Below, piece by piece: positions 8,548 to 50,449 of a DNA stretch of 63,930 nucleotides (within the stretch, counting starts at the first letter, position 1; the number at the start of each line of letters is the position of its first letter). Under the pieces are notes generated by a model. It was not told the DNA's origin, did no database searches, and saw only the letters and a program-made list of their open reading frames with translations. The stretch covers positions 223,208 through 287,137 of the forward strand of contig PS015024.1 of the NCBI GenBank assembly GCA_048213135.1, read 5' to 3'. The position numbers and the translations under genes are program-made. This DNA is from Reclinomonas americana ATCC 50394. Its lineage: Eukaryota.

Positions 8548-11500
8548 TTATTCCTCGCCGGAGCGAGGCAGTTGGAGTGGTGCCAGTCTAACTGGCACAA
8601 AATGCCTCCCTTCATCCCCAAGCTCACTCGGGTCACTGGAATCGAAAAAGGCGGAGTTTGTGACGCCGGTTGGCGACATGGTTGTGGGCGACAGCGGCTC
8701 CGCGTCCAAGGCCGCTCCATCGATCTCGGCCTCGTCAAGCACACTGGCGACGATTTCGAAATTCACGCCGCGTCGACACCACTCGCGCACGTCAAGGCCG
8801 TCGACTGCCTCGTGCTCGAGGCCGGCAAACTGGCCTTCGTCAATGTTCGACGAGCCGGCAAGCAGGACCACAAACTCGTCAAAGTCTATGCACTGCAAGC
8901 AGCAAAAGGGGAGTTGGTGTCAGCAGTTGCACAGAGAGCGGAAGTGAGAGATTTTAGGCACGGGTGCACGCAACTCCGTCGCCGTCGTCGTCAAACTCTG
9001 TGGTCATGGCCACGAGGTCGGCGTACGACCGCATCTCCCCGACTTCTTCGAGAATGGCACGCAGTTCGTCCTGGTCGATCTTGCCACTGCCGTCGGCATC
9101 GTATGTGTTGAACACCTCGCGCAGCTCTTCCACCGAAGATCCTTGCAGCGATGACACGNNNNNNNNNNNNNNNNNNNNNNNNNNNNNNNNNNNNNNNNNN
9201 NNNNNNNNNNNNNNNNNNNNNNNNNNNNNNNNNNNNNNNNNNNNNNNNNNNNNNNNNNNNNNNNNNNNNNNNNNNNNNNNNNNNNNNNNNNNNNNNNNNN
9301 NNNNNNNNNNNNNNNNNNNNNNNNNNNNNNNNNNNNNNNNNNNNNNNNNNNNNNNNNNNNNNNNNNNNNNNNNNNNNNNNNNNNNNNNNNNNNNNNNNNN
9401 NNNNNNNNNNNNNNNNNNNNNNNNNNNNNNNNNNNNNNNNNNNNNNNNNNNNNNNNNNNNNNNNNATCACACTGCAGAATTCGTTCCAATCGATTTCCTA
9501 GAGAGGTGATAGTGCGTGCGGTAAGTTGCGATGGCGTCGCCACAAGAAAAGAGGAGCTGTGAGGCACTCACCAGATCGCCGTCGTCGTCACACTTGACGA
9601 TAATGTCACGAACTTCGTTTTCTGTCGGCGACTGCCCGAGACAGCGCAGGCAAATGCCCAGCTCCTCCGGCGTCAGCACGTGATTCCCGTCTGCGTCAAA
9701 CACCTCAAATGCCAACTGCATGCATTGGCCCAGTGGGGGCAGTCCGGGCAGTTGAATGGCATTCAGCTCCTCCAGTGGCACCGGATCGTTGATGAGGCGA
9801 TGGCGCACATGAGGTGGCAGCTCGCGCGAGTAGCGAATCAACGTCGGCCGCAGTCGTTGAAGCAGAGAGTAATTCTGCGGCTCTTCCTTTTCGAATTCGA
9901 GGCGTGTACGGAACGCATTGACAGCGGCCTTCATGCGGAGCCACGCCATGTCGTGGATTGCACTCTTCAGTTGCATAGAGCGTTGATGTTGCTCAAGCAG
10001 GCTGTGTGAGGGGTGGTGTGAGTGTAGGTGAACAATGCTGGTGCACAATGTTGGAGAGAACTCAACGTTAGGTACTCTGGACCGAGTGCGTTGCGCGCCA
10101 GCACCACCAGTGTCGACTGGAAGTGGGCCATGTCGAGAGCGAGGCCGACCTCCTTCATGTACTCGCGCAACTCAAAGTTGAACGTCTTTAGTCGAGCGCG
10201 TGTCACCGTAACCGGTTTGACAAGTGGATGGCCGAGCTCGGTGAGATCCTCCAGCACGACTTGCAGCTGGCGCCAGTGCATGCGATTGCGACCGCCGCTG
10301 ATTTCCTGCCACGCGTCTTGGAATCTGCACGATGGCGGTGAGTGCATGCTGCNNNNNNNNNNNNNNNNNNNNNNNNNNNNNNNNNNNNNNNNNNNNNNNN
10401 NNNNNNNNNNNNNNNNNNNNNNNNNNNNNNNNNNNNNNNNNNNNNNNGATTGCTGCTCATATGCAACGCTGCGCAACTTTTGCATATCGTCCTTCGAGAT
10501 TACAAAGGTGGCCTTGCGGTACACGTGCCCGAACTCGTCCAGAATAATCGCCACCACCAGGTTGAGGAACACAAAGGCCAGGAAGGCGTACACAAACACG
10601 AAAAATATGTACACCAGAGCCGGTTGGCCGCAGTAGGGCTCCGCACAAAACGGTTTTTGCACCGCAAGGTCGCGCATGACGCACTGCCAGTTGTCGGCTG
10701 AGAAGGGAGGTACGAGTCACAAGGGCGGTAAAAGAAGTGCACAGCGGTTATAGACACAAAAGACGAACCTGTTGTCACCCGCATGACCGTCAAGAAGGCG
10801 GGCACGAAGGAGCGGAAGTTGGCCTGTCGGTTGAGGCAGCTGCCGAAGCGTACGGTGCCGAACTGTTGCACGCCGAGTGTCGCGAAAATCACCACAAAGA
10901 TGAAGAAGACAAATGTGGTGTTGATCAGTCGCGGCAGCGCGGAACTGTACGACAGTTCGAGGGTTAGACGCAGATATAACACGGCGTTCTCGTCGAGCAG
11001 TCAGGGAGCACGCAACATCAAGGTCTCGAAGATGAGCCGCGTCGGCCGATAAATGTGCACGAGACGCAGAATTCGCAAGATGCGCGAAATGTCTTGAATG
11101 GCGTACCCCACCGACGCCACCTCAGACACACTGCTGAATGTCATGAACCAGCCGAGCCAGGAGCCGACAATGATGGAAAAGTCAAACACATGCCATCCCG
11201 ATTGCATGAAATATCCGCTGTGTGCAGATAGGCAGACGCATCCTGTCAGTCTCGCGCAGCAACTCTAAAGCACGCACAAATTCAATAAGAAAACGCACCC
11301 CGGTAGATAGGCTGTCATGCGAATCACGGCTTCGACAGTGAACACGGCGAGGAACATGAAGTTTCCGATGTTGATGGCATCCGAGACAGCCTGCGACTGA
11401 CCAAAGTGGCGCACTGCCAACAGGGCGGTGTTGCCGACCACACAAAAGAGGATGGCACTGCATCGCGCACAATATTATCGAATACTGTCTTTCTTGTGAA

Positions 11501-14500
11501 GAGGCAAGAAGAGCAACAAGAGAGACGCAACGGCTCAAACCACTTGCTTTCGCAGCAAGCCAATGCCAGTTTACGGACGCGGCTGCGCGCTTCGCGTGCC
11601 GTTGGTGGCAAGGCCTGGAGCAGAATGCCACGTCGAATGTCGCGCCACGCACGCTGCGTATCGGTGAGATACGCAGTGCCCACTTGCATTTGCATGTTCT
11701 GGACCACGATGGCGATGAAGATGTTGACCAGGAAAAAGTTGGCGGTGAGCACGAAAGCCACAAAGAACACCGAGTAGTAGGGGGCGCTGTTGGTGACCGG
11801 TGCCTGGCCTTGGCCTGTCATGCTGGTCGTGGCCCACAAGACCGGTGTCCAGTTGCTGAGAGTGGATGACTCGAACAGAACCAGCAGCGAATTGGCGGTG
11901 TTGTCGAAATTGTAGTATGGTGTTTTCCACGTGCGCGGAGCCACCACTCCTAGCGAGTTGGTGTAGTAGCCGAAACAACTGGTCTGATTGAGTGCACTAT
12001 CGCTGCATCGGTACAGACCGCCAGCGAACAAGTTGACGCCAAACAGGGCAAACAGGAGGTAGATGAACAAGCCGACAATGGCGACGTTGAGTAGCTGACT
12101 CGAGGCCTTGCCGAGAGATTCGAGCACAACTTGTGCGCCTGGGAGGAGAGAGACAATTGATGGGAAGGGAGTGACGGCGACGTGATGCAGAGAGCAAAAC
12201 GCACCTCGATTCCGTTTGAAGAGACGGAGTACTTTCAAGCAGCGAAGCGCGTCGAAACCGGCAATGTGCAGCAATTCACCGTACAGTTCGATGAGCAGCA
12301 GCAGATCCAGCCAGTTCCACTTGCTACGCAGATAGCCGTCGGGGCTGAAGAGGACGCCGTGTGCCACTGTCTTCAGCACAAAGTCCAACGAGAACACTAC
12401 CGCCAGCACGCAGTTGGTGATGTTGAGTGCACGCAACACATCCGACGAGTTGTCGTCATCAGCGCGATTCAGAATCAGGAATGCCAGCGTCACCAATGTG
12501 GCCAGCAACACTGTCCAGTTCCACACCGTGGATTCCACCCACACATGAGCGATTTTGCGGACGGTGTTGTTGGGCCCGAGCCAGCCGAACGAATAATCGG
12601 GGAATTGGTTGTCTGCAAGCAAGTGCTGTGCGTGAGCCATCACCCGATACACAGCTATCTTCCATAGCAGTGACGCAACTCAAGATCGACTTGTACCGAT
12701 CAGTCTCGCCCAGACCATTCAGCCTCGTCACCTTGGTCATGCTGCAGTGATCGATGATCAGACAACATTTCTGGCATGGCGGTGCACACGACAGTAAGGG
12801 CGGTTCCTCACCTGCTCATCTTGTCGTCCTTCTTAGGCGCTTTTTCCGGATCCACATCGTCAACTGCTTCCTCTTCTGCCTGCTGAACGACGAAGCCGCA
12901 GCCAATCAACAGACTGCGACCGCACGTCCGCTTCGTCGGTTGCTTCATCTTGCGAGCGCGAACAGTAGTCTTTTCCCATCGTGAGGCATCGTAGTACATC
13001 TTGCAGCGGCGCTCGTACTCCTCTGGGGTCTGTCCCAGTGGTCCGCTGTCTTCCGAACCTATCAGCAAGCCACAGTGCTTGTGAGTTGTCTTCTCTTACA
13101 GAACACAGGCTGACTTTGCAACATGTATCCGCAACTCGACGAAGAGGAATAACCGTCATCGTCGTCCTCTGCCTCGCCCTTCTCGGACGGAATCGCAGCC
13201 GATTGAACAGATGCCGCCGACACCAGAAGCGTCGGTTTGTTGGCTGCCGACACGAACAAACTGTCGGTTCGTGACTTGCCAAACTGCGCAATGTTGCTCG
13301 TGCTGTCGGCCATGCTTCCGACAGCCGGCAGCACCTTGCCACGTGTGCTCTGCTTGGACGAAGGTCGTGAGCTCTGCTTCGATGACGGCCGTCCACTCCT
13401 CCGCGCCGTGTGCTCCTCTCGCGGCTGGCAAAACATGATGCGGAACAGTCGTCGTAGCGCCATGTAGAGGCGGAACAGGGTGGTGATAGGCAACTGTGCA
13501 ATGTTCACACGCACACCCAAATCAGTCAACGTGGATCACCAAAGAGGAGTACGGGGGGGAATGCGAAACCTTTCTCTTGCCGCTTGCCTCGACATCCATC
13601 ACCTCCTGCTGCTGCATGCGCTGCTTGGTGTCTTGGTCGACATCGAATGCCTCGACGATAATGGCCAAGAACAGGTTAATGACGATGACTGGTGAGAGAA
13701 AGCACAAAGTAGTGTGAGCCTGCTTGTGGATTCCACCCTTCCAAAATCATCACAGCATACGCAACACTTGGCAAAGAGGATGTAGCACACAAAGTAGAGA
13801 ACGGTCGACAATAGGCGTTCGCTCATCAATGGGTAAATGAGATATGGCCAGCCGTCCGCCGACATTAGCTGTAACGGAAGAGTCAACATGTGTGTGTGTG
13901 AGAGAGAGATGACGGGTGACCATAGGCTACTCGTCAAGACTGAAACACAGACCTCGAATGCAACAATCAAGGCCTCCCAAAAGGTAGTAAACTGCCCGTA
14001 CGATGTCGGAATGACCAAGTCGCCGAACAACTGCATGCCAATGATGCCGAACACGATCAACACAAAGGCGATGAAGATGAACACGTTGAGGATGCCTTCG
14101 ATCGAGTTACTGAGCTTGCTCTGTTGAGTGACGCAACACAGAACAGTGCAGGTGTAAGCAAGACAGATAAACAGTATGCGTCTGAGTTTGTATGACACGC
14201 CACGCACAATCAGTTCTCGTGGTCCCTTGAGACGCCGGAACAGTTTGAACAGGCGGAGCAAACGGAACGAGCGCAGCAGACTGAGATTCGACGAGGCCAG
14301 TACGACGCTGATTACCGAAGCAACCACCACCACGAAATCAAACTGGAATCGCCCTGGATGCCACACATCTAGCAGTTAGTCGCACTGACATTATGAAGGA
14401 AAGGAACGAGCACGAATGCCGCACCCCAGCGGAAGTACTCGAGCGGGTTGCCGAGTGCGCACATGATGAGAACCATCTCCAGCGCAAACACGCAGGTGAA

Positions 14501-17500
14501 TGCGATTTCCGAAATGTCTGCGTCACGGACGCAGAGCAGTTAAGTATCGCGCCCAGCGAGAAGCACTCACAAGCGCAAACGCACTGAGAAGTTCCATGAG
14601 TGCGTTGTCGGCCGGATATCTGTAGAGCACCATGAACGCCGTGTTGGCCACTGTGGGAAGAGAGAGAGGGAGTGGTCAGATGCAGTTGTGCGCGAATTAG
14701 GTAGATGAGCTGCCCACGTACCGATGAACAAGCTGGTGACAATCTCAAACGACGGCGACAGAATCCAGCGCTGAAGTCTGTGAACCCATTTGTAGCTGCC
14801 AATCAGGCGCATGCGGCTGAGTGGAGTCACTTCGTCTTCCACGTCGATCACAACAACGGTAGAGATGTCCTCGGTACTCTTGGCGCGTCCAAACGCCACT
14901 GAGTTTCCCACACTCGGTCGTGCTCCTGCCGGCCACATTTCTCCCACAGAAGTGCTCGAGTACTGCACAAACAAATGAGCGACATGCTGGTGGTGGCAGG
15001 AGAAGAAGCAGGAGTACATCCACGAACCGCGCCGCCAGTCATGATGCGTCGGCGAGCGACCTCGGCCAGTTCCTGTAAGCAACGAATACAGTGAGTCGCT
15101 TAAAATGCATCATTGTCGGAAACACAGTCGCTGTTAACCTCTGAAGTAATCTGCAGAAACGAAACGCAATGCAATATAATGAGATGCGCTAGGAAAAATG
15201 ACAAGAGCAGATCTCAGACGAAAAGAACTCACTCCTCGGGCTCGCACAAGATCCTCCTCCCGATCAGGAAGCTGAAACGACGCACGGAAGAAATGAGTTG
15301 AACAGGCTGTGAAGGTAGTGAAAAAGACGAGAGGGATTCTGCTACGCACCGACTCCACCGACAACTGGTTCTGACTCGGGACAATCTGCAGAGGCTGCAA
15401 CACATGTGAGACAACCAGAGACAACATTGGAGGAGTGACGTTTTTTTGCTTCACATACCTGCACACTGGCGGCGTCATCCCTGCTTGAGAATCCCTCACT
15501 CACCTGCGACCTGCGTCGCACAACGCGCACTGTCGCCTGCTGCACAGAGCCCGATCTAGCCGACTCTGCATGACCCAGAGAGTAACATGAGAGACTGACG
15601 CGCTCGCAAGATGCCCTCTTTTTCACACACGTACCCAGCGGATTGGGCGACAGGCGGTCCGTGAGTAGTGGCGATTGACGACCTTGCAGTCGCGGAGAAA
15701 TGCCGCCGCGCAGGGTGACCGGATTCGGCGCCTCGATAGCTTCTGCGTCGAGGAGCGACGGCACACTGCGTTCCGTCATCAAGTCCGGCGTGACTGCACG
15801 AACACGGTTTCCGACAGATTGTGCGTGCCGCGCGGACAGCAATGTCGACGGCCGCCGTGCTGATGCCAGAAGACTAGCTTCGGTGAGAGTCGCTCCAGGC
15901 AGATTCGACTCCGCCACTCTCTCGACCGCCTGCGTCGGCGGGGGCGCCCATTGGTCGGTAACAGGAATGCGGGTGAAATCGTATGAGCTTCGCACGTCCA
16001 CGTCAGCCACCGATGCCCGTCGAATGCCGGCAAGCGATCCACGCCGTACGACTACAAAGTCGGGTCGTGGTGACGTCTGCGCATCGTTGATGTCGTGTCC
16101 TTCCAGGCGCACGCGGAAGCCGATGCGGCTGTCGCGTCGACTCATATTTCGCTGGGAGAACTTGGCACTGATGGCAGCCACTGACGACCTTCGTCGTGGC
16201 GCGGATGCACTTCCCGGAGCTGCGCTATCCAGTCGTCGTTTTGAGCTGTTGTATGGTGCTCATTTTTTCAGTGACCATTTTCTGCAGAGACCGCGCACAC
16301 AACAGAGATAGATAAACAAACCTCTGTTGTGACACAAAGCCGGATTCGCCACGGGCACGAATGCGTGCAAACGTCTCACTGATCACGGCGACGAAGAGAT
16401 TGACCGCGATGCTGCATTGGTGTCGCAGGCAGGTGAGACAAGGAACGCGACACGTTGTGACGGTCACCGCACGCAACAAGCAAAGCAGCACCACAAGAAT
16501 CATGTTGTACAAGAGGCTGTAGGAGAATGTGGCGTCCATCTACATGCAAGATAGTGTTAGAGCGTTCGTGTGACGCATGCCGGTGGCGTTTCAAGCGCGC
16601 GTGCAGACCTCGGCATACATAAAGTCGGTCCATCCGATTAGAGTCAGTGTGTGTAACACCGCCATCATGGCGCTTCCCATGTTGTCAAAGTGCGCAAAGT
16701 ATGGAGGATTCCCGTAATCCTGTGCATGTACACACGGAGGTGAGTGAGGGCAAGTCGCGCGCATACATATTTCGTAAGCCGTCAACAAGACGTACCGCCA
16801 TGCACTGCTGCTGACCGGGACATTGAAAGCCGGTGTGCCTTGTGGTGGAACATACGGCGGCTGGGATGGATACGAGCGTGCTGTCGTTCCCCAGTGCACA
16901 CCGACCACGAAAACTGCCGCTGAACATCACCAGGCCAATAACTGCAAAGAGCGTCACCGTGACCAGCAGGAATAGGGAGACGTTGATCAGCAGCGACAGT
17001 GACTCGCGCAGGCTCTCCAGGATGGCACGCATGCCCTTCAGCATCTTGATAGCGCGCAGCGGTCGAATGGCACGCAGCGCACGAACGGCCGACAGTGAGA
17101 CGCTCACTTCGGCGGTCATGGCAATCCACGAAGTGACCAGAATGATAAAGTCCAAGCGGTGCCACGGATTCCGCAGATACGAGTGTTTGTGCAGCACTGC
17201 TCCGAGTGCCACTATTTTCAAGCCCACCTCCGCCGTGAAGAAGACCAACGTGTAAAAGTCAATCTGGTACAGCACGTGCTGAAAGCCCTTGGCCGATGAC
17301 ATGGTCAAACGCGGGTCCTCGGCCGCCAGCGTCACCACACTGAGAATCACCACGGTGTAGACGATAAAGTCGCACACTGGATGGAAGAGTACAGCAGCGA
17401 GCCACTTGCGAAACACGTTGTCGGCCGACAGCAGCCACAATGAGCGTGAATGGAGCTCATATTTTGGCTCTGGTGCCACGGGTGCTGCTGCTGCTGCTGC

Positions 17501-17887
17501 TGCTCCTCCCGTGTCGTCCGTCGATATGTTGGAACTGCTGGTGCGACGTGCGGGCGAAGCGCATCGTGAGGCGTTGCGCGTGGCGGTGGCCTGCGGGGTT
17601 CACAGAGTATGCGTTGGCAATCAGTGTGGGGTGAGTTTTGGGACACGTGCACTCACCGGACTCTTCAGCTCATCCTCTGTGAAGAACTGCACCGACTTGC
17701 GCTGCACTATCGGCGCAAGCGACAGATGTTGCCTCGGCGTGGTGCCGAGGCCGCCACTGCTCTCACTTGTCAGTCCATCACGCACATGTGCAAAAAAGAG
17801 GTGTGTGTGTGTGTGTGACGTCGACACACGCACGCGCGCAACTCTGTCTCTCTGTTCATGGGAGGGCGTGGCGGAGAACGGCGACAC
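8548..17887 (-). CDS. Four-domain voltage-gated-like cation channel (NALCN/Cch1-like) with a C-terminal calmodulin-like domain; start codon uncertain
   Basis: Four 6TM repeats with S4 segments RALRAIRPLRAIK, RSFRLLRLFKLFRR, RCLKVLRLFKR and RILRILRLVH. Pore loops TLIGW, SADGW, TLSNW and TADNW. III-IV linker GTAYLTDTQRAW and DIV FGTVRFGSCLNRQANF...VQKPFC resemble NALCN/Cch1. Four EF-hands downstream. Confidence 0.9.
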
Positions 17888-25778: not shown

Positions 25779-28700
25779 TCATTCCTCGGCATCGCCTTCC
25801 TCGGCATCCTCCTCCTCCTCTCCGTCCTCCTCTTCCTCTTCCTCTTCGCCCTCTTCGGCAGTCCCGTCGATTTCGCTGTCGTCGCCATGATCCTGAGCGC
25901 TGGAACGGCCGCTCTCTTCGCCCTCCTCTGGGGTCTCCACAAGACGCACTCGCCGCTGTCGCGCGCTGCCTGGCGATCTCATAGCCGACGGTGGAGATGG
26001 TTCTGCCGCCGGCTGCTGGATGAGCTGCACGGCTTGCTGCAGCAGATTCACCGTCTCCACCGCGTACGCCGTACGGTAGCCCTCAAACAGACGCGTACCG
26101 CCAGGCAGCGCGCTACTGAATGATTTGGATCGGCGTGGCGCCGCAGTGCGACGCGAGGCAGCTGGTGGTGACTGCGGCCATCGGATCGCTACTCCGCGCG
26201 GCGACTGGGCAGTGTCAGTGGAGATCTGTTGCGGACGCTGCGGCAACTGCGCAGTGGATCCTTGCGGTCGCAGCAGTGTTCCCGGCGCACGCGCACCTCG
26301 ATCATCACCTGCCGTCAGCAGCTCCGGCATCGGGAACTCAGGAGCTGGTGCGATTGCTGCTTGGCGTGACACTGGACGCCGGTCGTTGTTGGGGCTGCAT
26401 GTCGCAACACAAAGGTCATCATCCTTGTCTCAGCGACGCATTCCTTCGTGTGAATACACACACAAGAACAGTACCTTGTAAGCCGCGGCGATGCAGGCGG
26501 CGATGTGAGGCTTCTGGTCGGCGAGAATCCTCGCGGCGCACTGGGTGGGCTCGACGAGCGTGGCGACAGGAGTGACGATGATGGTCGCCCACCCTCTGCC
26601 GAAGTCAACAGCCGACTCTCACGTGCTCCGCCCTCGCCGCCACGAGGCGACGGTGCGGCGCCCGCTTGCGCCTACAACCAACAAAACGCAGTCAACAACC
26701 ACGGTACACAAGCCACTGAATAAATGCAACCAAATACTGACCGCCAGAGTCGAGAGATACGATGAGCGCGGGGGTGCTGCCTGGCGGCGGGGCGAAGAGG
26801 CCTGTTCGACACTCTCACCAGCTTCGTCCGCATCGGCGGCCGCGCGTTGACGAATCGAGTACAGAGAGCCAAGAGGCGAGTCCACCGACAGCGGTTGTCG
26901 AACAATCTTGTCACTCTGCCACTGGTGCTCATGCGTTCTGCAACCCGGTAAGCGCGTCAGCAAAACTCGCACGCACATGCATGCTGCACGGGCGGGGAGA
27001 CGCAACGATCGGTACACTGAGCTGAGTTGATTACGCCCGTCACGGATCTACGACGACGAGTCAGAAAATGAGAACACAACAAGCGGACAACGTCGACACA
27101 AATCCCTGCTACCTTCAGCTCGCCAACGTAGCCAGTCGTTGGGAATTCTGGCGGTTGCAGTCGAGGGAAGGGAAGTGGCGGCGGCAGGCGCCGCGGTGGC
27201 GACACGCTCGATTCCGGACTCTGGCCAGATTTCTGTTGCGCGCGCAGGTTTTCTGCCAGCTGACGCATAATGTCGTCTGTGCTCTCAGCCGAATCCACTG
27301 CCGACGGAAGTCGACGACGACGCGGCGGAGATACATCAAACGGAAGTCGCAACTCGGCCTGCTCGCGGTCCAAATCAGCCGTCGACTCTCGAGGCGGCGA
27401 AACACGCGCACGCTCGCGTTCAGCGGCCGCTGGTCGTGGAGCTCGCTTTCCGGCACGTCGCTGCACTGGAGGCGAGGGGGAGCCAAATGGGGAAGCATCC
27501 AGAGCTGCGTCAGCGGCCTTGGAACGCTTCCTCCTCCGTGTTGGCGATGAGTGCAACGGCTGTGAGAAAAAAAGAGCGGAGTCAGACTTGCGGGTGCCAC
27601 ATGGAGTAAGGAGCAATAATATGATGCAGCACCTCAGCCTCGGGAGGCGGCGGAGTTGGCGGCAGCGGCGGTGGAATGCGCTCTGGATCTCGATCCACGG
27701 CAGCAAGCAGCTCTCCACCTATCGGAGACGGCGACGACGTCTGCCACGGAATCAGTTCCTGTGTGCATGTGCAGCACATGTGAGTGCCGACAAAGACGCG
27801 CAGAGCAGAGATCGCAAGTGGCTGGCCGACGAACCTCCGGTTCGGTACGCTCAGTCGCTGTCGGAGCCACTTCGTTGGCTGCGCCTGCAGCTGCACTGCC
27901 GCGCTTGCCAGTCTTACCACCAACTTTGCGAGACGACGGCGACACCGATCTGGAAGCTCCCTTTGTGGTCTGCGTGCATCAAATGAGCAACGGCCACACT
28001 ACGACTGGTAATCCCCCCGCAATACCTTGTCAACGACGTCTTGCGCGGCGCCCACCTTGGCCTTCTTGCCTTTCTTGCCACTTCTCGGCGATGCCAGTGC
28101 CTCAGCCGCATCGTCACCCGACTCCTCCGCTGCCGCAGCCTTCTTCTTGTCCTCTCTGCCTTCGCCGCCCGTCTCCGCACCATCCTCCCTGTCAGTTGCG
28201 CCAGCCTCCTCCTCCTCCCCCTCCTTTGCCGCAGCCTTGGTCTTCTTCCCCTTCTTGCCGCTCTTCGGCGATGCCTCGCCAGCCGCCGCTTCGTCACCCG
28301 ACTCCTCCGCCGCCACGCCCTTCTTCTTCGCCTTGCCACCCTTCTTGCCCTTGCCGGTGGGAGTCTTCGACTCTTCAGCCTCTCCCTCCGTCTCCGCACC
28401 ATCCTCCCTGTCAGTTGCGCCAGCCTCCTCCTCCTCCCCCTCCTGTGCCACAGCCTTGGTCTTCTTCCCTTTCTTGCCACTCTTCGGCGATGCCTCACCA
28501 GCCGCCGATTCGTCACCCGACTCCTCCGCAGCTGCACTCTTTTTCTTCGCCTTGTCACCCTTCTTGCCCTTGCCAGTGGGAGTCTTCGACTCCTCAGCCT
28601 CTCCCTCCGTCTCGGCACCATCCTCCTTGTCAGTTGCGCCAGCCTCCTCCTCCTCCCCCTCCTTTGCTGCAGCCTTGGTCTTCTTCCCCTTCTTGCCACT

Positions 28701-31700
28701 CTTCGGTGATGCCTCACCAGCCGCCGATTCGTCACCCGACTCCTCCGCCGCCGCACCCTTCTTCTTCGCCTTGCCACCCTTCTTGCCCTTGCCAGTGGGA
28801 GTCTTCGACTCCTCAGCCTCTCCCTCCGTCTCGGCGCCATCCTCTCTGTCAGTTGCGCCAGCCTCCTCCTCCTTTCCCTCCTGTGCCGCAGCCTTGGTCT
28901 TCTTCCCCTTCTTGCCACTCTTCGGTGATGCCTCCCCAGCCGCCGCCTCGTCACCCGACTCCTCCGCCGCCGCACCCTTCTTCTTCGGCTTGCCACCCTT
29001 CTTGCCCTTGCCAGTGGGAGTCTTCGACTCCTCGGCCTCTCCCTCCGTCTCGGCGCCATCCTCCCTGTCAGTTGCGCCAGCCTCCTCCTCCTCCCCCTCC
29101 TGTGCCACAGCCTTGGTCTTCTTCCCTTTCTTGCCACTCTTCGGCGATGCCTCACCAGCCGCCGATTCGTCACCCGACTCCTCCGCCGCCGCACCCTTCT
29201 TCTTCGCCTTGCCACCCTTCTTGCCCTTGCCAGTGGGAGTTTTCGACTCCTCAGCCTCTCCCTCCGTCTCGGCGCCATCCTCCTTGTCAGTCGCGCCAGC
29301 CTCCTCCTCCTCCTTCGCTGCAGCCTTGGTCTTCTTCCCCTTCTTGCCACTCTTCGGTGATGCCTCACCAGCCGCCGCCTCGTCACCCGACTCCTCCGCC
29401 GCCGCACCCTTCTTCTTCGGCTTGCCGCCCTTCTTGCCCTTGCCGCTCTCTTCCACTTCAGCAGCAGGCGTTGGCGGCGCAGTCTCTTCGACAGCGGCAT
29501 CCTTGGTCTTCTTCCCCTTCTTGCCGCTCCTCGGCGATGCCAGAGCCTCTGCAGCCTCATCGCCCGACTCTTCCGCCGCCGCGCCCTTCTTCTTCGACTT
29601 GCTGCTAGTCTTCTTGCCGCCCTCCTCCGCTTCAGCAGCAACAGGCGTTGGTGGTGNNNNNNNNNNNNNNNNNNNNNNNNNNNNNNNNNNNNNNNNNNNN
29701 NNNNNNNNNNNNNNNNNNNNNNNNNNNNNNNNNNNNNNNNNNNNNNNNNNNNNNNNNNNNNNNNNNNNNNNNNNNNNNNNNNNNNNNNNNNNNNNNNNNN
29801 NNNNNNNNNNNNNNNNNNNNNNNNNNNNNNNNNNNNNNNNNNNNNNNNNNNNNNNNNNNNNNNNNNNNNNNNNNNNNNNNNNNNNNNNNNNNNNNNNNNN
29901 NNNNNNNNNNNNNNNNNNNNNNNNNNNNNNNNNNNNNNNNNNNNNNNNNNNNNNNNNNNNNNNNNNNNNNNNNNNNNNNNNNNNNNNNNNNNNNNNNNNN
30001 NNNNNNNNNNNNNNNNNNNNNNNNNNNNNNNNNNNNNNNNNNNNNNNNNNNNNNNNNNNNNNNNNNNNNNNNNNNNNNNNNNNNNNNNNNNNNNNNNNNN
30101 NNNNNNNNNNNNNNNNNNNNNNNNNNNNNNNNNNNNNNNNNNNNNNNNNNNNNNNNNNNNNNNNNNNNNNNNNNNNNNNNNNNNNNNNNNNNNNNNNNNN
30201 NNNNNNNNNNNNNNNNNNNNNNNNNNNNNNNNNNNNNNNNNNNNNNNNNNNNNNNNNNNNNNNNNNNNNNNNNNNNNNNNNNNNNNNNNNNNNNNNNNNN
30301 NNNNNNNNNNNNNNNNNNNNNNNNNNNNNNNNNNNNNNNNNNNNNNNNNNNNNNNNNNNNNNTTGGTGGCGCCGCCTCCTCGACGGCAGCATCCTTCGTC
30401 TTCTTCCCCTTCTTGCCACTCCTCGGCGACGCCAGAGCCTCTGCAGCAGCCGCCTCGTCGCCCGACTCCTCCGCCGCCGCACCCTTCTTCTTCGACTTGC
30501 CGCTGCTAGTCTTCTTGCCGCCCTCCTCCGCTTCAGCAACAGGCGTTGGTGGTGCAGCCTCCTCGACGGCAGCATCCTTGGTCTTCTTCCCCTTCTTGCC
30601 ACTCCTCGGCGATGCCAGTGCCTCTGCCGCCTCGTCACCCGACTCCTCCGCAGCCGCACTCTTCTTCTTCGACTTGCTGCTCTTCTTGCCGCCCTCTTCC
30701 GCCTCAGCAGCAACAGGCGTTGGTGGCGCCGCCTCCTCGACGGCAGCATCCTTGGTCTTCTTCCCCTTCTTGCCACTCCTCGGCGATGCCAGTGCCTCTG
30801 CCGCCTCGTCACCCGACTCCTCCGCAGCCGCACCCTTCTTCTTCGACCTACTACTGCTGCTCTTCTTGCCGCCCTCTTCCGCCTCAGCAGCAACAGGCGT
30901 TGGTGGTGGTGCCGCCTCTTCCGCAGCGCCCTTGGTCTTCTTGTCGCGCCGGCTGCGTGCCTTATCGATCTCCTCCACTGCCGGAGAGGGTGCCTCCACT
31001 TCGGCCGGCACAGTTGCGCCCTTGCGACTGCTCCGCGGCGTCTCGGCGGTCTTTTTCGCAGCCACCTTGTCCGCTGCTGGTGCCGGTTGTGGAGGCGCCT
31101 CAACAGCAACCTCCTCCGGCGCCGAGACCTTCTTGTCCCTCCGACTGCTGCGCGGCTTCTCCGTGGTCGCGGCAGGCTCAGGAGCAACAGCAGCCGCCGC
31201 CGCCGCCGCCGCCGCCGCCGTGGCTTTGCTGTCTCGACTCTTGTCTGTTGACGGCAACTTGCCGCCCTTCACGGGCGTGGCCGGGGCCTCAGGCTCGACG
31301 GAGATCGGTTTCCCGCGACTCTCGGGAGCCGGTGGCGAAGCGTCGCGCGACCGCTTTCCGCCCTTCTTTTCCACAACCTCTGCGGCTGCAACTGGGACCT
31401 CAACCGGAGCAGGCGTCGCGTCCTTGCCGCGCCGATCCTTTCGCTTGTTGTCGACGGCGGCGTCGGCAGCAGCGACAACGGCAGGCGCTTTTGGTTCCTG
31501 CGGTGTTGTCGCGGCTCCGGTGGCCCGGCCGCCCTTTTTTCCCGCCACCGGTTGCTCTGCGGTCGGTGGTGCGGTGGTGGCGACTGCAGGCTGAGCATCG
31601 GGGGCAGCGGGCTTGTCACGCGGCGTCCTGCCACTTGTCTTGGGTGGCACAGGTGCTGCTGCTGCTGCTGGCGACTCCTGCGCGACGGTTGCCGGTGGTA

Positions 31701-34700
31701 CTGTTGCTGCAGCCGGCGCAGGCTGTCCACGGCGCGGTGACGTGTCGCGTGAACCCCGATCCCGTCCCTTGCCGCCATCTGCACCAGCCACTGGAGCAGG
31801 AGCAGCTGGCACGACAGGAGCAGGAGTAGCTGGCGCCGCCGCAGCCGCGACCTTGCCTCCGGGAGGCGCACGCTTTCCACCATCAGCCGCTGGCGTCGGT
31901 GCGGAAGCGGCTGCCGCCTCCGGCGGACCGGCCTTCCCTCCACGTTTACCGACGACGGCAGCAGCGGCTGTAGCGGCAGTCGGACTGGCTGCTGCTGCGG
32001 CAGCCGGTGGGGCGGCAGGACCAGTTTTTCCGGCAGCAGGTGCAGTCTTTCCGGCAGCTACTCCAGCCTTACCCGCCGGAGCCACCTTGCCAGCCGGAGC
32101 CGTCTTGCCAGTGGGTGCGGTCTTGCCGCCCGCAGGCGCCACTGGAGTCTGCACAGCGGCAGGTTCCTGCAAGATGCGTGGTACACGTCTGTGAACGCAA
32201 ACTCTACATCTCGACAGGCTCGGCAACTCACCGGCGGCTTGTCGTTCTCGGTAGCTTTGACAGTCCCAGCAGCGACAGCCTCGGCCACTCGCGCCCACCT
32301 GCTCCTTCGTGGCGACTCGCCAGACATTATTTCGTCACTGCCAGTGCCGCCAATCGCAGCAGATGCCGCCAGGGCTGCCGGTCCACGGACTGCACGCCAG
32401 GGTGAGTGACTGATGGTGGGGAGACAAGTACCGTCAACTGAAATGAACGCACCACCCTTGAGCACAGCACGCTGTGCCCACGCCGCATCCTCTTCGGCAG
32501 TCTGCATTCGCCCTCGCCCTCGTCGCTCCGCCAGCAGCCGCAGCTGCTCATTCAACACTGAATCGTCTCCGTGGCCCTCCTCGTGGTCTCTCTCCGCCAT
32601 GGCCAGCTCTGCATCCGTGCGTGACTGCGCGGCAGAGCCTCTCACAATGCCTCCCGCCGCCCCTCCCGCAGCGCGACCGCCATACCGAGGCGGCGCAGCG
32701 CCATGAGGACTCAACATGGTGTCACCAGCCCCCACTGCCGAGGCGAGTGTCGGCAACGCCGACGATGAAGTCGAGATGTCGTCCGACGACACGGTCGACG
32801 CCGTGCTGTGGTGACCACGCTTGCGCAGCTTCTCGAGCTGCTGACGGAACCGTTCGTCATCCTCTTCCGCGTCGGCCTCGTCGTCAGCATCGCCACTGAC
32901 GTCGGCCAGTCGTTCACGGATGCTGGGCGGCTTGTCGAGTCCGTGGAACGGCAAAATTGCACGATGACCAGGTCGCTCGGGCGACGCATCGCGAGCACGC
33001 ACATGTCGTGCACCGGCGCCGGCACCCACTGGGAACTCTTGCGCGCTCGCCGCCGATGAGGCGTCGTCGTCGTGCACCGCCCACTGCACCTTTTCCATTA
33101 GAGTGCGCACGTCGCCTCCACCGGCTGGCGGCTGCACCTGCGGCCGTAACACTGGCCGTGCCGCCATGCGCGCTACTGGATACTCTTCAGCACCAGCCTC
33201 CGACATGGTGTCGTCAACTGAGTCCGTCTCCCTTGTCGCCTTGCGCGACACTCCCGCGGAGTTCACCAGTCGGCGCGGATCCGTGCCGTGACCGGCCAGC
33301 GGTGGCCCCGGTACCACCGACTCCAACATGGTTCGCAACGGAGGTCGCGCTGTGTGATTCACTGAGAGTCGCGACGAAGCTGTGGCCATGCCAGGCACCT
33401 CCCCGTCCACGACAGCCGTGCTCTCGTCATCATCCGACGCGGCGCTATTGGGAGTACGTGTGACACGGCGCGCACGCACCGCTGACGACGCCGTGGCTGT
33501 CGGTCCGGCGTCGGGATGAGGGGCACGGACACGTGGGCCGGGCACACGAGGCATCAAATCCCGCGGCCGTGATCCACCGTCGTAGTAGCTCACGCGCACA
33601 GAGGNNNNNNNNNNNNNNNNNNNNTGCCTTGGCGACGCTTTCCACTCCCTCGCCGGCACCCGCTCGCCGGTCGCAGTCCACTGCCGCCGATCCTCGTTCT
33701 CAGTATTTTAACGCACCCTCGCCTGGAGCCTACGACGCCGCCGCCGCTGCGGCTGCTGCTGCATCGCGCGGTGGCCGTGCGTCGGCACACGTGCGCTTTG
33801 CCGATCAAGCGAATTCTCCCTCCCCGCTGTACCAGCAGCCGCCCATGCAGCAGCAGCAGCAGCAGCAGCCTCCGGTGTCGCCGGCATTGGCCGCTGCCCG
33901 CCGGCTTGCCGCCGCAGAGTCGCCAATCTGGGACGGGAGGCGAGCCATCATTGCCGACGCGACGCACATGGCGCCGTCGCCGCAGCATTCGTATCAGCAG
34001 ACGCTGCCGCCCAGTCGCCAGTCAGTGGCCTCTCCGACAGCCGGAGCACAGTCGTACACACAGCAGGCACGCAAAGCGCTGACTGCTGTGCCTGCTGCCG
34101 CCATGTCACCCGTGATGCCAGATTGGGAGTCATCGAGGTCTGTGTCACGCAGTGCCATGCGCTCTCGCACCTGCGCACTTTTCTCACTACTCTTTCTCTC
34201 TCTCTCTCATTCTCTCCTCTCAGCGACTCCGACAGCGACATGGTGCCTGGCAATCTCATGCTGTACAATTTGCCGACGAGAACACCGCCGGCTGTCAACT
34301 ATGCTCCGCGTGGACCAGTGGTGCACGCGGACGACTCGTCGTCCTCTTCCTCGTTGTCATCGGTGGAGGAGGGCCTCGGTCGTGTTATTTACGATGAAGA
34401 TTTGGGGACGCCAGTCTTCACTCCCCCTCCCGTGCCGCCTGCCTTCCCGCCGACAGCGCAGCAACTCGCAAACGCGCGTCATCAGCGGCTCGGCCGAGGT
34501 GCAGCAGGAGGAGGAGGACGCGGAGTGCCAGACGCGCTGCCGCAGCAGTCGTACTCGGAGAGAACTGGCATGCGCTCGGCTCCGGCCAGTTATTGGGGTC
34601 CGAGCGGAACGCCTACTCGCGGCTTGGTCGACAATGGGGNNNNNNNNNNNNNNNNNNNNCCGGCGGTAGTCAAGTGTGCGTACGCCGCGTCTGGCGGCGT

Positions 34701-35944: not shown

Positions 35945-38900
35945 ATGCAACGCCGGCAGCAGAAGCGACAAAAGCGGCCTCGCGTGGAAGAGGTCATTGA
36001 TGAAGAGCCTGCGGTTGCAGTCGTAGAAGAGGAGGAGCAAGCCGATGCCAATCACTGGCACGGTGGTGGCGACTTGCCTTGGGACGACGAGGATGACGAG
36101 GAGGAGGAGGATGGCGACTTTGAGGACGATGAGGATGATGATGACGACGACGATGCATTCAGCGACGATGTTGTCGAAGAAGAGGACGATCTGGATGCGT
36201 TGATTGAGGCGGCGGCTGCACGAGGTCCGCCATGCATGTGCACATTCACACACTTTTTTTCTTTGCGCCCCCCCACTTCATTCACACAATCCACTGTTGC
36301 TTGTGCAGCACCGGCGCGGACCGATGCCCGTGATGAGAAGCGTGTGCGTCCGGCCGAGGACGATGAGGACTCGTCGGATGATGAGACGCTGACGAATACG
36401 ATTGGCAATGTGCCGCTGGAGTGGTACGATGATTACGATCATGTGGGGTATGACGTGGCGGGCGAGCGGATTGGCAAGTCGGCCTCGAAGAAGATGGATT
36501 TGGTCGATCGGCTGCTTCGCATGCAAGATGATCCGGACTACATGTTGCGTTTTTTTCTTCCATTTGCGAACAAGAGACGAGTGTTGACTCTCTATGCATA
36601 GTCGAACTGTGTACGATGCACTGCATGATCAGGAGCATGTGTTGACGCACGAGGAGCTGGAGACGATTCTGCGCATTCGGCGTGGCCAGTTTGCGGAAAA
36701 GTCGGTCGCCACCGAGATTGTTGCGTCGCTTTTGTGCACTCTCATCAGTGTTGCATGCATGTTTTTCTCACCTCTTGCTCGCTGCAGCCTCTGTATGGCA
36801 CCGGAGAGAAAGAGTTGCATCCGCTGCGCAATGCACCGCTCAAGAAGAGCCGCTTCATCCCGTCCAAGAACGAAGGCAAGATTGTGGCGCACTACCGCAA
36901 GCTGATCCGCGAAGGCAAGATCCCGCCGTTTGAGCCCAAGCTGGATCCGGAGGCACTGGAGCAGTTGCCGACGCCTCACGATTTGTGGGGCCGTGGCTCC
37001 GACGCCAAGCTGCCGTCGTACCACGTGCCGCCGCCGAAGCTGCCGCTGCCGGGTCACGCCGAGTCGTACAATCCTCCTGCCGAGTACCTGCTGACACCCG
37101 AGGAGGAGGAAGTGTGGCGCAATCGCGATNNNNNNNNNNNNNNNNNNNNNNNNNNNNNNNNNNNNNNNNNNNNNNNNNNNNNNNNNNNNNNNNNNNNNNN
37201 NNNNNNNNNNNNNNNNNNNNNNNNNNNNNNNNNNNNNNNNNNNNNNNNNNNNNNNNNNNNNNNNNNNNNNNNNNNNNNNNNNNNNNNNNNNNNNNNNNNN
37301 NNNNNNNNNNNNNNNNNNNNNNNNNNNNNNNNNNNNNNNNNNNNNNNNNNNNNNNNNNNNNNNNNNNNNNNNNNNNNNNNNNNNNNNNNNNNNNNNNNNN
37401 NNNNNNNNNNNNNNNNNNNNNNNNNNNNNNNNNNNNNNNNNNNNNNNNNNNNNNNNNNNNNNNNNNNNNNNNNNNNNNNNNNNNNNGCAAATGAGTCTCT
37501 TCTCCATGCGGTTGTGTCACAAAAGACCAGAAATCAGAAACGCACCCGACGCCAAGTACTGTCCATTGGGCGACACAGCCAGAGCGCGCACCATGCCAGT
37601 GTGTCCTTTGAATCTAACGCTCAGCTTGGTGGGGAACGGCTTCAGCTCGTTAACGTCAGGCAGCTCCGGGAAGAGCTGCTTGAACGGCGTGTAGGTGCGC
37701 GTCTTTTGCACACGCGGGCACAGGTACAAATCGAGGCACCGCTCAAATCGCTCCTTGACAAGGTTCCTGTAGGACGGCAGCAGACGCAGGGAGGTGTGCT
37801 TGCGCGGCAAGAAGTTGGTCTGCCTCTTGCTGGGNNNNNNNNNNNNNNNNNNNNNNNNNNNNNNNNNNNNNNNNNNNNNNNNNNNNNNNNNNNNNNNNNN
37901 NNNNNNNNNNNNNNNNNNNNNNNNNNNNNNNNNNNNNNNNNNNNNNNNNNNNNNNNNNNNNNNNNNNNNNNNNNNNNNNNNNNNNNNNNNNNNNNNNNNN
38001 NNNNATTCACAGGTGGCGATGATTGCACGCTGCGATTATGGGAGGTGCGCACGGGTCGGTGCTTGCGCATGTGGCGCGCAAAGGACGTGGTGCAGTGTGT
38101 TGAGTTCCATCCGCTGGCCACTGTTCCGCTGTTGGTGGCTGGTGTCGACACGGGTGAGTGGTAGCCGATGACTGTTTGTGTGTGTGTCCGGGAGGTGCGA
38201 TGATGGCTCACGCTTTCGCGGTGCAGATCTCGTCTTCTTTGACAGCAAGATCGGCAATGCCGACTGCCGTGAACGCGTGCTCTCTGTGGCCCGTGCGGCG
38301 CGACAGGAGATTCCGACCGGCCAGCGACCGGTGGCAGAGTGGATTTCGCACCTGGACGGGTCGGTGGCGCCAGAGGCTGCCGCCGAGGGCCCGAGCGACG
38401 GACAACGTAACCAGTGGCGTGAATTGGAACCACTGTTCACCATTCGCCACGAGTTCAAGCTTCGCCAAGTCACCTTCCATCACAAGGGCGACTACCTCGC
38501 CGCTGTGTGCCCCGACGCCAACACTCGCGGTGTGGTGATTCATCACCTCGGCAAGCGCCAGAGCCAGTGCCCATTCAAGAAGACCAAGGGCCAAGTGCAG
38601 GTGAGCACACGCGCCCACATAACATGCATATCGTATCGTTGCTGATCACCCTCTCTCTTTCTCTGTCTCTTGCACACTCGCAGCAAGTTGCCTTCCACCC
38701 CACCGAGCCACGCTTCTTTGTGGCCACGCAAAAGTTTGTGCGTATCTACGACCTGGTCAAGCAGGAGTTGGTGAAGCGACTGCAGCCGGGCGTGCGCTAC
38801 ATTTCCAGGTTTCGTCCCCGTGATTTGCCACCAGCTACTGTCGGTGGGCTGTTAATCCTCACCTGGGTGCGTGTGTGTGTGCATGCAGTCTGGATGTGCA

Positions 38901-39325
38901 TCCGGGTGGCGAGAATGTGCTGTTGGGCTCGTACGATCGCAAAGTGGTGTGGTTCGACACGGAGCTCAGCTCGCAGCCTTACCGCACCATGCGTCACCAC
39001 AAGGAGGCTGTCCGTGCGGTGCGTGCGGATGCGTGTGTATCGTTTTCATTATTTAGAGCAGATGACTGATGTCTTGCTGTTGCAGGTGGCATACCACCGT
39101 CGGTTACCGCTGTTCGCCACGTGCAGTGACGACTTGGCGCTCAACATTTTCCACGGCATGGTGTACTCGGATCTGTTGCAAAACCCGCTGATTGTGCCCG
39201 TCAAGCGCATTCGTCAGGGTCACATGCGTGCCGAGGACATGGGTCTCTTGGTGTGCAAGTGGCACCCACACCAGCCGTGGATCTTCACTGGCGGTGCTGA
39301 TTTCATGATCAATCTGTACTCGTGA
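35945..39325 (+). CDS. BOP1: Ribosome biogenesis protein BOP1/Erb1 (WD40); internal contig 37487-37833 is inverted
   Basis: DSSDDE..NTIGNVPLEWYDDYDHVGYD and PPKLPLPGHAESYNPPAEYL. The inverted piece encodes ERFERCLDLYLCPR...ELKPFPT...FKGHTG. C-terminal YSDLLQNPLIVPVK...WHPHQPWIFTGGAD. Confidence 0.97.

Positions 39326-39450: not shown

Positions 39451-50449
<10,999 letters not shown>

Follow-up and report, generated by a model that had tools for sequence, protein, structure and literature searches.

What kind of cation channel is built around a selectivity-filter ring that holds one isoleucine, one serine and only two carboxylates? The question is raised by a gene in a stretch of 63,930 nucleotides from Reclinomonas americana ATCC 50394 (assembly GCA_048213135.1, contig PS015024.1, positions 223,208 to 287,137 of the forward strand), referred to hereafter as the window, of which the DNA is eukaryotic, with about 57% G+C and with the N gaps typical of a draft scaffold. 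The gene occupies a single locus on the minus strand, from about 17.6 kb down to about 8.5 kb of the window, and apparently is an intact gene for a four-repeat voltage-gated cation channel with the ring Ile-Asp-Ser-Asp (IDSD). Our reading, to which we give a probability of about 0.55, is that the product is a voltage-gated, Ca2+-permeable and weakly selective cation channel of an old Discoba clade with low-charge rings, its permeation being predicted by analogy with studied channels.

The IDSD ring was confirmed at the level of the gene sequence. The four filter codons, all on the minus strand, are ATC at 16638-16636 (Ile in T-L-I-G-W of repeat I), GAC at 13856-13854 (Asp in S-A-D-G-W of repeat II), AGC at 11857-11855 (Ser in T-L-S-N-W of repeat III) and GAC at 10695-10693 (Asp in T-A-D-N-W of repeat IV, in which the Ala codon, G plus CC, is split by a 71-base GT-AG intron). 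All four follow the pattern of the re-entrant pore loop (P-loop), (T/S)-x-filter-x-W, and the Trp columns read WWWW in 133 of the 160 aligned rows. The sequence-only reading of this stretch had assigned IDSD to these same codons in a four-domain channel with basic S4 segments (S1 to S6 being the six transmembrane segments of a repeat). The codons were indeed found at those positions, the channel identity was borne out by Pfam Ion_trans matches in frames spanning all four repeats and by the spliced four-repeat model, and the S4 segments keep 6, 5, 5 and 5 (plus one His) basic residues at every third position in repeats I to IV.

The placement of the ring, likewise claimed from the sequence, agrees well with the columns of the MAFFT alignments of 160 and 48 rows, where IDSD of the window gene stands on EEEE of Cav1/Cav2 (Cav1.2, Cav1.1, Cav2.3, cnidarian and placozoan Cav). 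For other channels these columns yield DEKA (SCN5A), DENA (Nax), DEEA (Nav2-type channels) and EEDD (Cav3), and this return of every canonical ring indicates that the placement method is sound. Against solved structures, the repeat-III frame matched Cav1/Cav2 best (E 4e-57), with its Ser on the repeat-III Glu of Cav1.2 (tlsnw on tfegw). The repeat-I exon gave a gapless alignment with residues 272-299 of 5gjv_A (E 6.5e-9), the P-loop of repeat I in rabbit Cav1.1, where ligw falls on megw. The repeat-II exon alone gave no match to solved structures, and the repeat-IV second-half query was aligned chiefly on S6, with the filter outside the displayed alignment. In repeats II and IV, the filter was placed from the multiple alignments together with equal spacing, the Trp lying 20 residues on from the F of FTTF/FDNF.

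Could the alignment be shifted, with acidic residues elsewhere in the loops forming the true filter? Among the explanations weighed in this study we consider this one the least probable, and hardly credible. An Asp is indeed located two residues past the Trp of repeat I (WTD), but it is present in Cav1 as well (TMEGWTD), and hence is no substitute for a ring residue. With the unspliced repeat-II frame as query, HMMER placed the segment LTSSLW, which resembles a P-loop well enough to draw such a match, on the filter of Cav2.2; this assignment was discounted, LTSSLW being encoded inside a canonical 84-base GT...CAG intron with a CT/CA repeat. The intron in question (13869-13952, minus strand) is in frame and carries a CT/CA microsatellite, and its retention would lengthen the P-loop by 28 residues without a stop codon. 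Around the invariant Trp the alignments are gapless, and the columns that recover the canonical rings are the same ones that give IDSD.

Both neutral codons, ATC and AGC, are at least two substitutions away from any Asp or Glu codon (GAY/GAR), so that neither a single read error nor a single A-to-I or C-to-U edit can hide an acidic residue; RNA editing that restores an acidic residue was rejected on the basis of these codon distances. Read errors and a shifted alignment had been named in advance among the ways in which the claimed ring might fail, and both are largely ruled out because the ring is conserved in relatives, as described below. No second copy of the repeat-I or repeat-II P-loop exon was detected in the window by tblastn, barring the expected cross-match to repeat III. 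The positions right after the ring residues are G, G, N and N, none of them acidic. In four-repeat channels, repeats I and III lie opposite each other across the pore, and likewise repeats II and IV; the ring hence has a pair of carboxylates along one diagonal and a pair of neutral residues along the other.

For the gene model, frame-keeping GT-AG junctions were enumerated, and those restoring Cav-like spacing were chosen. The model contains 15 introns of 66-87 bases, 14 of which are GT-AG with CAG or TAG acceptors, while the remaining one is ambiguous. The features, in the order of transcription, are as follows.

16796..17599, minus strand: repeat I, S1-S5 and the start of the S5-P loop, in one exon (Pfam Ion_trans, E 3.9e-33), with the donor GTACGT at 16795; S4 is RALRAIRPLRAIKMLK, with 6 basic residues in register.
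16609..16719, minus strand: P-loop exon of repeat I, 37 residues, ending in AVLHTLTLIGWTDFMYAE, with the filter Ile (ATC 16638-16636).
16322..16539, minus strand: S6 of repeat I, including the conserved Asn in IAVNLFVAV; holds the ambiguous intron.
13953..14869, minus strand: repeat II, from S1 as far as the middle of the P-loop, in exons 14869-14722, 14650-14585, 14517-14425, 14353-14208 and 14120-13953; S4 is LRSFRLLRLFKLFRR.
13766..13868, minus strand: repeat II, from the middle of the P-loop to the middle of S6, beginning with LMSADGWPYLIY, with the filter Asp (GAC 13856-13854).
13600..13688, minus strand: closing part of S6 in repeat II, (F)IVINLFLAIIVEAF, leading into the II-III linker, from the gene model.
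12205..12640, minus strand: repeat III, S1-S4; S4 is LRCLKVLRLFKRNR; the 5' acceptor is probably 12626 or 12613.
11532..12138, minus strand: repeat III, S4-S5 linker through S6, and the III-IV linker, with the filter Ser (AGC 11857-11855) in LFESSTLSNW.
11017..11457, minus strand: repeat IV, S1-S4, in exons 11457-11299 and 11217-11017; S4 is RILRILRLVHIYRPTR.
10769..10944, minus strand: repeat IV, S5 and the P-loop up to its middle, ending with FLTVMRVTT and the first base of the Ala codon, from the gene model.
10448..10697, minus strand: repeat IV, from the middle of the P-loop through S6, (A)DNWQCVMRDL...FLNLVVAIILDEF, with the filter Asp (GAC 10695-10693); the exon enters the N gap 10353-10447.
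9470..10352, minus strand: C-terminal tail with the post-S6 segment, the IQ-like stretch AIHDMAWLRMKAAVNAFRTRL and the first EF-hand pair (Pfam EF-hand_7, E 4.7e-7).
8551..9157, minus strand: second EF-hand pair, putatively on the channel transcript, EF3 being DADGSGKIDQDE and EF4 the intron-split DDDGDG / IDFDEF (Pfam EF-hand_6, E 5.2e-11; EF-hand_7, E 5.2e-9).

Four homologous six-helix repeats of Cav-like length are thus carried on one polypeptide. By hand count, 43 residues separate the S4 Lys of repeat II from GMQLFG, and 15 residues separate Tyr from Asn in S6 of repeat II, in the model as well as in Cav1.2; the S6 Asn and the P-loop Trp are each kept in 4 of 4 repeats. When 150 homologues were searched against the window by tblastn, the matches were confined to the channel locus. 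The exact exons of the two long linkers have several options, with 6 single-intron open spliced paths for the I-II linker and 48 three-intron open spliced paths for the II-III linker (the latter in a search with a relaxed donor pattern). The ambiguous intron is located inside S6 of repeat I (16412-16486, minus strand), where no standard GT-AG intron preserves the frame and at the same time gives an S6 of normal, Cav-like length; the only fits are a 75-base GC-AG intron (16486-16412) and a 42-base GT-AG intron. When this S6 is left unspliced, the frame stays open and S6 is longer by about 21 residues. Neither the start codon of the channel gene nor the 5' limit of its first modelled exon was found.

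Some irregularities could speak for a decaying pseudogene or an assembly artefact, in which the odd ring residues would be mere noise: the assembly is a draft in which two N gaps (10353-10447 and 9159-9465) interrupt the gene, one intron is without an ordinary GT-AG solution, and no transcript support was obtained. We nevertheless judge this explanation very improbable, since neither a stop codon nor a frameshift is present across the 24 transmembrane segments, the 14 other introns are canonical, the residue spacing is that of Cav, no acidic codon is within one substitution of either neutral codon, and the same ring is carried by transcript-derived proteins of two other species. As a further measure, the family columns with at least 85% conservation were collected (106 columns, 8 of them gapped in the window protein); the window protein keeps 78 of the 98 aligned positions (0.80), and its clade mates keep 0.82-0.94. 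By this measure the protein is divergent, not decayed.

The exhaustive HMMER search over 1.84 billion representatives gave 4934 hits, and none of the best 150 of these exceeded 33% identity to the repeat-III exon, so that no copy or close orthologue was seen in the searched library. The word-indexed search with the repeat-III frame listed at least 120 matches, nearly all of them vertebrate Cav1/Cav2 isoforms and none above 30% identity, and the ESM Atlas search returned generic Ion_trans clusters only. No protein named as kinetoplastid was returned by the word-indexed or the exhaustive search. Among 159 aligned homologues, 67 carry EEEE and a single one carries IDSD, namely P0141 of the jakobid Stygiella incarcerata, which is also the closest sequence overall (31-32% identity over the whole model). 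A profile search, in which 17 proteins were scored, added P0287 of the heterolobosean Percolomonas cosmopolitus, again with the ring IDSD.

The similarity extends to the loops themselves. In BLASTP alignments, the repeat-I P-loop was matched to that of Percolomonas with TLIGW on TLIGW (13 of 26 residues identical) and to that of Stygiella with TLIGW on TFIGW (14 of 35), and the repeat-III pore exon was 40% identical (69/174) to Stygiella P0275, with the same TLSNW. IDSD is thus common to the window gene, Stygiella (P0275/P0141) and Percolomonas (P0287) at overall identities of about 26-32%, and its retention in three lineages at such a distance fits selection on the role of the ring. From these comparisons, IDSD seems to be a long-standing variant that works, rather than an error. 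The sequence-only reading had called the ring unusual, which holds against animal and fungal channels but less so among protists: 11 of the 159 homologues are neutral in repeats I and III and acidic in II and IV, and a survey of 277 channels describes 'a great variety' of filter motifs with EEEE dominant (PMC5824947).

The phylogeny was analyzed by IQ-TREE with 48 rows and 1275 columns under LG+G4, with support given as ultrafast bootstrap/SH-aLRT (Shimodaira-Hasegawa-like approximate likelihood ratio test). The window gene was placed in a monophyletic clade of 10 rows (97/94) together with the Stygiella, Percolomonas, diplonemid and euglenid sequences, and the same neighbours were obtained by FastTree with 160 rows. 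Within the clade, Stygiella branches first, then the window gene (92/33), a position that suits a jakobid, and then a 100/99 group of Percolomonas plus Euglenozoa. The rings in this last group are IDSD and TDSD in the Percolomonas paralogues, SDAD and ADND in Diplonema and Namystynia, SDDD in Entosiphon, and ADND and TDSD in two further sequences. As controls, NALCN and the fungal Cch1-type channels came out together (100/97), and separate clades were formed by Nav, by Cav3 and by Cav1/2; the window gene is outside the Cav1/Cav2 clade (itself 100/100), across a 100/100 split. An organism name is attached to 7 of the 9 relatives in the clade, and all 7 are Discoba. On this tree the clade is old and, among named sequences, includes Discoba only, namely jakobids, heteroloboseans, euglenids and diplonemids. 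In all 10 rows repeat I is neutral and repeats II and IV carry Asp; at the repeat-III position, 9 rows show S, A or N and one (Entosiphon) shows D. In these alignments the hallmark of the clade is a low-charge ring, with a neutral repeat I, usually a small polar residue in repeat III, and Asp in repeats II and IV.

The alternation of neutral and acidic residues is shared by 14 of the 48 tree rows, which fall in three places: the Discoba clade, a clade with ADSD or SDSD rings whose sole named member is Symbiodinium, and the volvocine algae with SESE. At least 4 changes on the tree are needed to explain the pattern. A tree in which these 14 rows were forced together was rejected (log-likelihood difference 433; p 1e-62 in the approximately unbiased test), the group having been named after the tree was seen. 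As judged from the tree, the alternating ring arose separately in Discoba, in the dinoflagellate-type clade and in the volvocine algae.

Within Discoba, a count on the tree topology shows that an IDSD ancestor is one step cheaper than three separate gains of Ile. A bolder possibility, which we hold only tentatively and consider doubtful, is that IDSD is ancestral to a channel class as old as Discoba and forms a distinct filter of two-fold symmetry, in which the conserved Ile is functional, not a loss that is merely tolerated, and of which the layout was reached at least three times. The Ile might then form a hydrophobic constriction and give the pore a conductance or an ion preference unlike that of the studied Cav, Nav and NALCN channels.

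How would such a channel work? In the mechanism that we propose, depolarisation would move the four S4 sensors and thereby open the S6 gate, and cations would traverse a filter made of backbone carbonyls and one diagonal carboxylate pair, the Asp residues of repeats II and IV. This pair would bind and pass Ca2+ with an affinity below that of an EEEE ring, and the lower affinity would make the channel Ca2+-permeable with weak selectivity against monovalent cations. A guide to permeation is TbCaV of Trypanosoma brucei (Tb427.10.2880), described as a flagellar and essential channel with the ring QESE; Ca2+ transport by it is reported both from HEK293T cells and from yeast without plasma-membrane Ca2+ channels (PMC12172032). 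By analogy with TbCaV, Ca2+ entry in the flagellar or plasma membrane would be a plausible role for the window protein. The sequence-only reading had proposed altered or non-selective permeation; this proposal is plausible only in a weak form, that of reduced Ca2+ selectivity. TbCaV, with the same charge pattern, is reported to carry Ca2+ (PMC12172032).

The strongest competitor, still unlikely in our estimate, is a conducting channel that the low-charge Ile ring makes essentially monovalent (Na+ or K+) or otherwise not Ca2+-permeable. The ring has only two carboxylates, both of them the shorter Asp, and the post-ring positions G, G, N and N include no acidic residue; the Na+-selective Nav channels lack an acidic post-ring residue in repeat II, according to the 2018 survey (PMC5824947). 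The same source also notes that acidic post-ring residues do not track E/E/E/E across protists. Prole and Taylor raised the same option for the homologues of Leishmania and Trypanosoma, described as having fewer acidic residues and as possibly permeable to Na+ or non-selective (PMC3194816). Against a monovalent channel stand the absence of Lys, which is the mark of the known Na+-selective four-repeat filters DEKA and EEKE, and the Ca2+ transport described for TbCaV, of which the QESE ring has an equal number of carboxylates (PMC12172032).

Improbable too, though more probable than the pseudogene and the shifted alignment, is a protein that does not conduct at all but serves as a voltage sensor or scaffold, with the Ile plugging or dehydrating the filter. 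A hydrophobic residue does occupy the narrowest polar ring, and well-kept voltage sensors would be expected in such a protein; yet the rest of the pore is conserved too (the four P-loop Trp, the Thr or Ser before the ring and the four S6 Asn), and IDSD stays constant over the three lineages despite their low identity. The rivals are ranked as follows: monovalent channel, non-conducting sensor, pseudogene and, last, shifted alignment.

Several points weigh against a weakly selective, Ca2+-permeable channel of the Discoba clade. For the members of the clade, permeation, gating and localisation are predictions from sequence, and no studied precedent was found for a bulky hydrophobic Ile at the charge ring, which could narrow or dehydrate the filter in a way that Gln or Ser does not. 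TbCaV was compared by its published description only, its ring carries Gln and Glu in place of Ile and Asp, and it is no more than a possible member of the clade. The tree was built under LG+G4, and the clade branches are long, with about 1.1 changes per column. The conserved-position score of 0.80 is to be compared with a median of 0.94 across 147 homologues. The gene model has no start codon, ambiguities in both long linkers and in the repeat-I S6 intron, and two N gaps in the tail; and no transcript-derived copy of the gene was among the best 150 of the 4934 HMMER hits, so that expression is unsupported by this search.

The C-terminal tail (8551-10171, minus strand) appears to contain a calmodulin-like module of four EF-hands, putatively on a single transcript with the channel. 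One stop-free frame (9470-10171) takes in both the IQ-like stretch and the first EF-hand pair, and the second pair lies beyond the N gap 9159-9465, with its fourth loop split by an intron into DDDGDG and IDFDEF. Ca2+ feedback on the channel may act through the IQ-like stretch together with this module in its own tail. EF-hand Pfam domains are found in other protist channels as well, for example Hemiselmis P0362 and P0375.

Elsewhere in the window, a strong skew was detected at 28001-32000 (GC skew to -0.42, AT skew to -0.55). Very long overlapping open frames on both strands, for example 27999-31268 minus (1089 residues) and 28012-31251 plus (1079 residues), lie around the N gap 29657-30362. 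The region 28001-32000 suggests a large low-complexity or repeat region. An Armadillo repeat was identified at 46285-47124 on the minus strand (Pfam E 2.3e-9) and a WD40 repeat at 38423-39325 on the plus strand (Pfam E 2.8e-6), and 13 of the 15 other long open frames gave no Pfam match.

The selectivity of four-repeat channels is usually explained from a few animal rings, EEEE, EEDD, DEKA and EEKE. A hydrophobic residue and two Asp, kept in three deeply separated protist lineages together with full voltage sensors, offer a natural test of how few carboxylates, and in which geometry, still make a cation filter. The clade reaches the diplonemids and euglenids and may relate to the trypanosome Ca2+-entry channel that is now a proposed drug target, and the function of the ring would inform the reading of diplonemid, euglenid and trypanosome channels. 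The window gene is also a candidate Ca2+ channel for the flagellar responses of jakobids, a lineage often used in reasoning on early eukaryotes. What appears to be new is the IDSD ring with its hydrophobic Ile, varied filter motifs of protists having been reported already in the 2018 survey (PMC5824947). No paper naming an IDSD ring was found by full-text search with 'selectivity filter', a search that a motif written with slashes would escape, and no literature on Discoba channels of the kind found in the window was among the matches listed. In the supplementary sequences of the survey, Discoba are represented by trypanosomatids only, with no Naegleria, Jakob*, Percolomonas, Reclinomonas, Diplonema, Euglena or Bodo (PMC5824947).

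How, finally, does the window protein compare with the known systems? With Cav1/Cav2 (rabbit Cav1.1, PDB 5gjv; human Cav1.2, 8hlp) it shares the four-repeat layout, the S4 charges, the loop lengths and the S6 Asn, whereas the ring is IDSD and not EEEE and the overall identity is 27-28%; assignment to Cav1/2 proper was rejected on the ring and on the position in the tree outside that clade. Nav1/Nav2 proper was rejected as well, IDSD standing where the Nav rows give DEKA, DENA or DEEA. The deepest well-supported split (100/100) leaves NALCN and fungal Cch1 in one group of 19 rows with the window gene, but they are not sister to its clade; NALCN proper was rejected, as NALCN goes with the fungal P0174 and P0158 (100/97) and the Discoba clade is separate in the same group of 19 rows. 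The fungal Cch1-type rings, QEEE or QDEE, also have a neutral residue in repeat I, but NALCN and Cch1 keep three acidic residues or a Lys, and the window protein has full S4 charges in all four repeats.

The volvocine SESE channels (Chlamydomonas reinhardtii XP_001701446.1, P0328; Pleodorina starrii P0138) show the same alternation, with Ser in repeat III, but form a separate clade beside the EEEE channels of Mesostigma, from which it follows that the pattern arose independently there. Six Chlamydomonas channels are included in the 2018 survey (PMC5824947), and a flagellar voltage-dependent Ca2+ channel of Chlamydomonas, CAV2, is described in PMC8318260; P0328 is no more than a candidate for CAV2. 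Two Pleodorina starrii sequences, P0138, with the ring SESE, and P0335, are labelled 'Caveolin-2' at source, perhaps through a wrong expansion of CAV2.

The closest systems are the channels of Stygiella incarcerata (EukProt EP01028 P000802-807; P0275, P0141) and Percolomonas cosmopolitus (UniRef A0A7S1K..., P0287), which belong to the same 97/94 clade and have the same ring. Their loop motifs are nearly identical to those of the window protein (TFIGW/TLIGW, T(I/G)D(D/N)W, (T/S)LS(N/T)W and (G/L)DNW), while their tails extend 133 and 216 residues past S6 of repeat IV without the calmodulin-like EF-hand module. Both are known from transcript-derived sequences, and no study of either was found. 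The closest studied counterpart is TbCaV, of 2693 residues, which according to its published description has Gln and Glu where the window ring has Ile and Asp, lacks the beta-subunit binding motif and keeps the pre-IQ/IQ motifs (PMC12172032). Like the predicted product of the window gene, it is a single-subunit four-repeat channel of Discoba, with a ring that reads neutral, acidic, Ser and acidic (PMC12172032).

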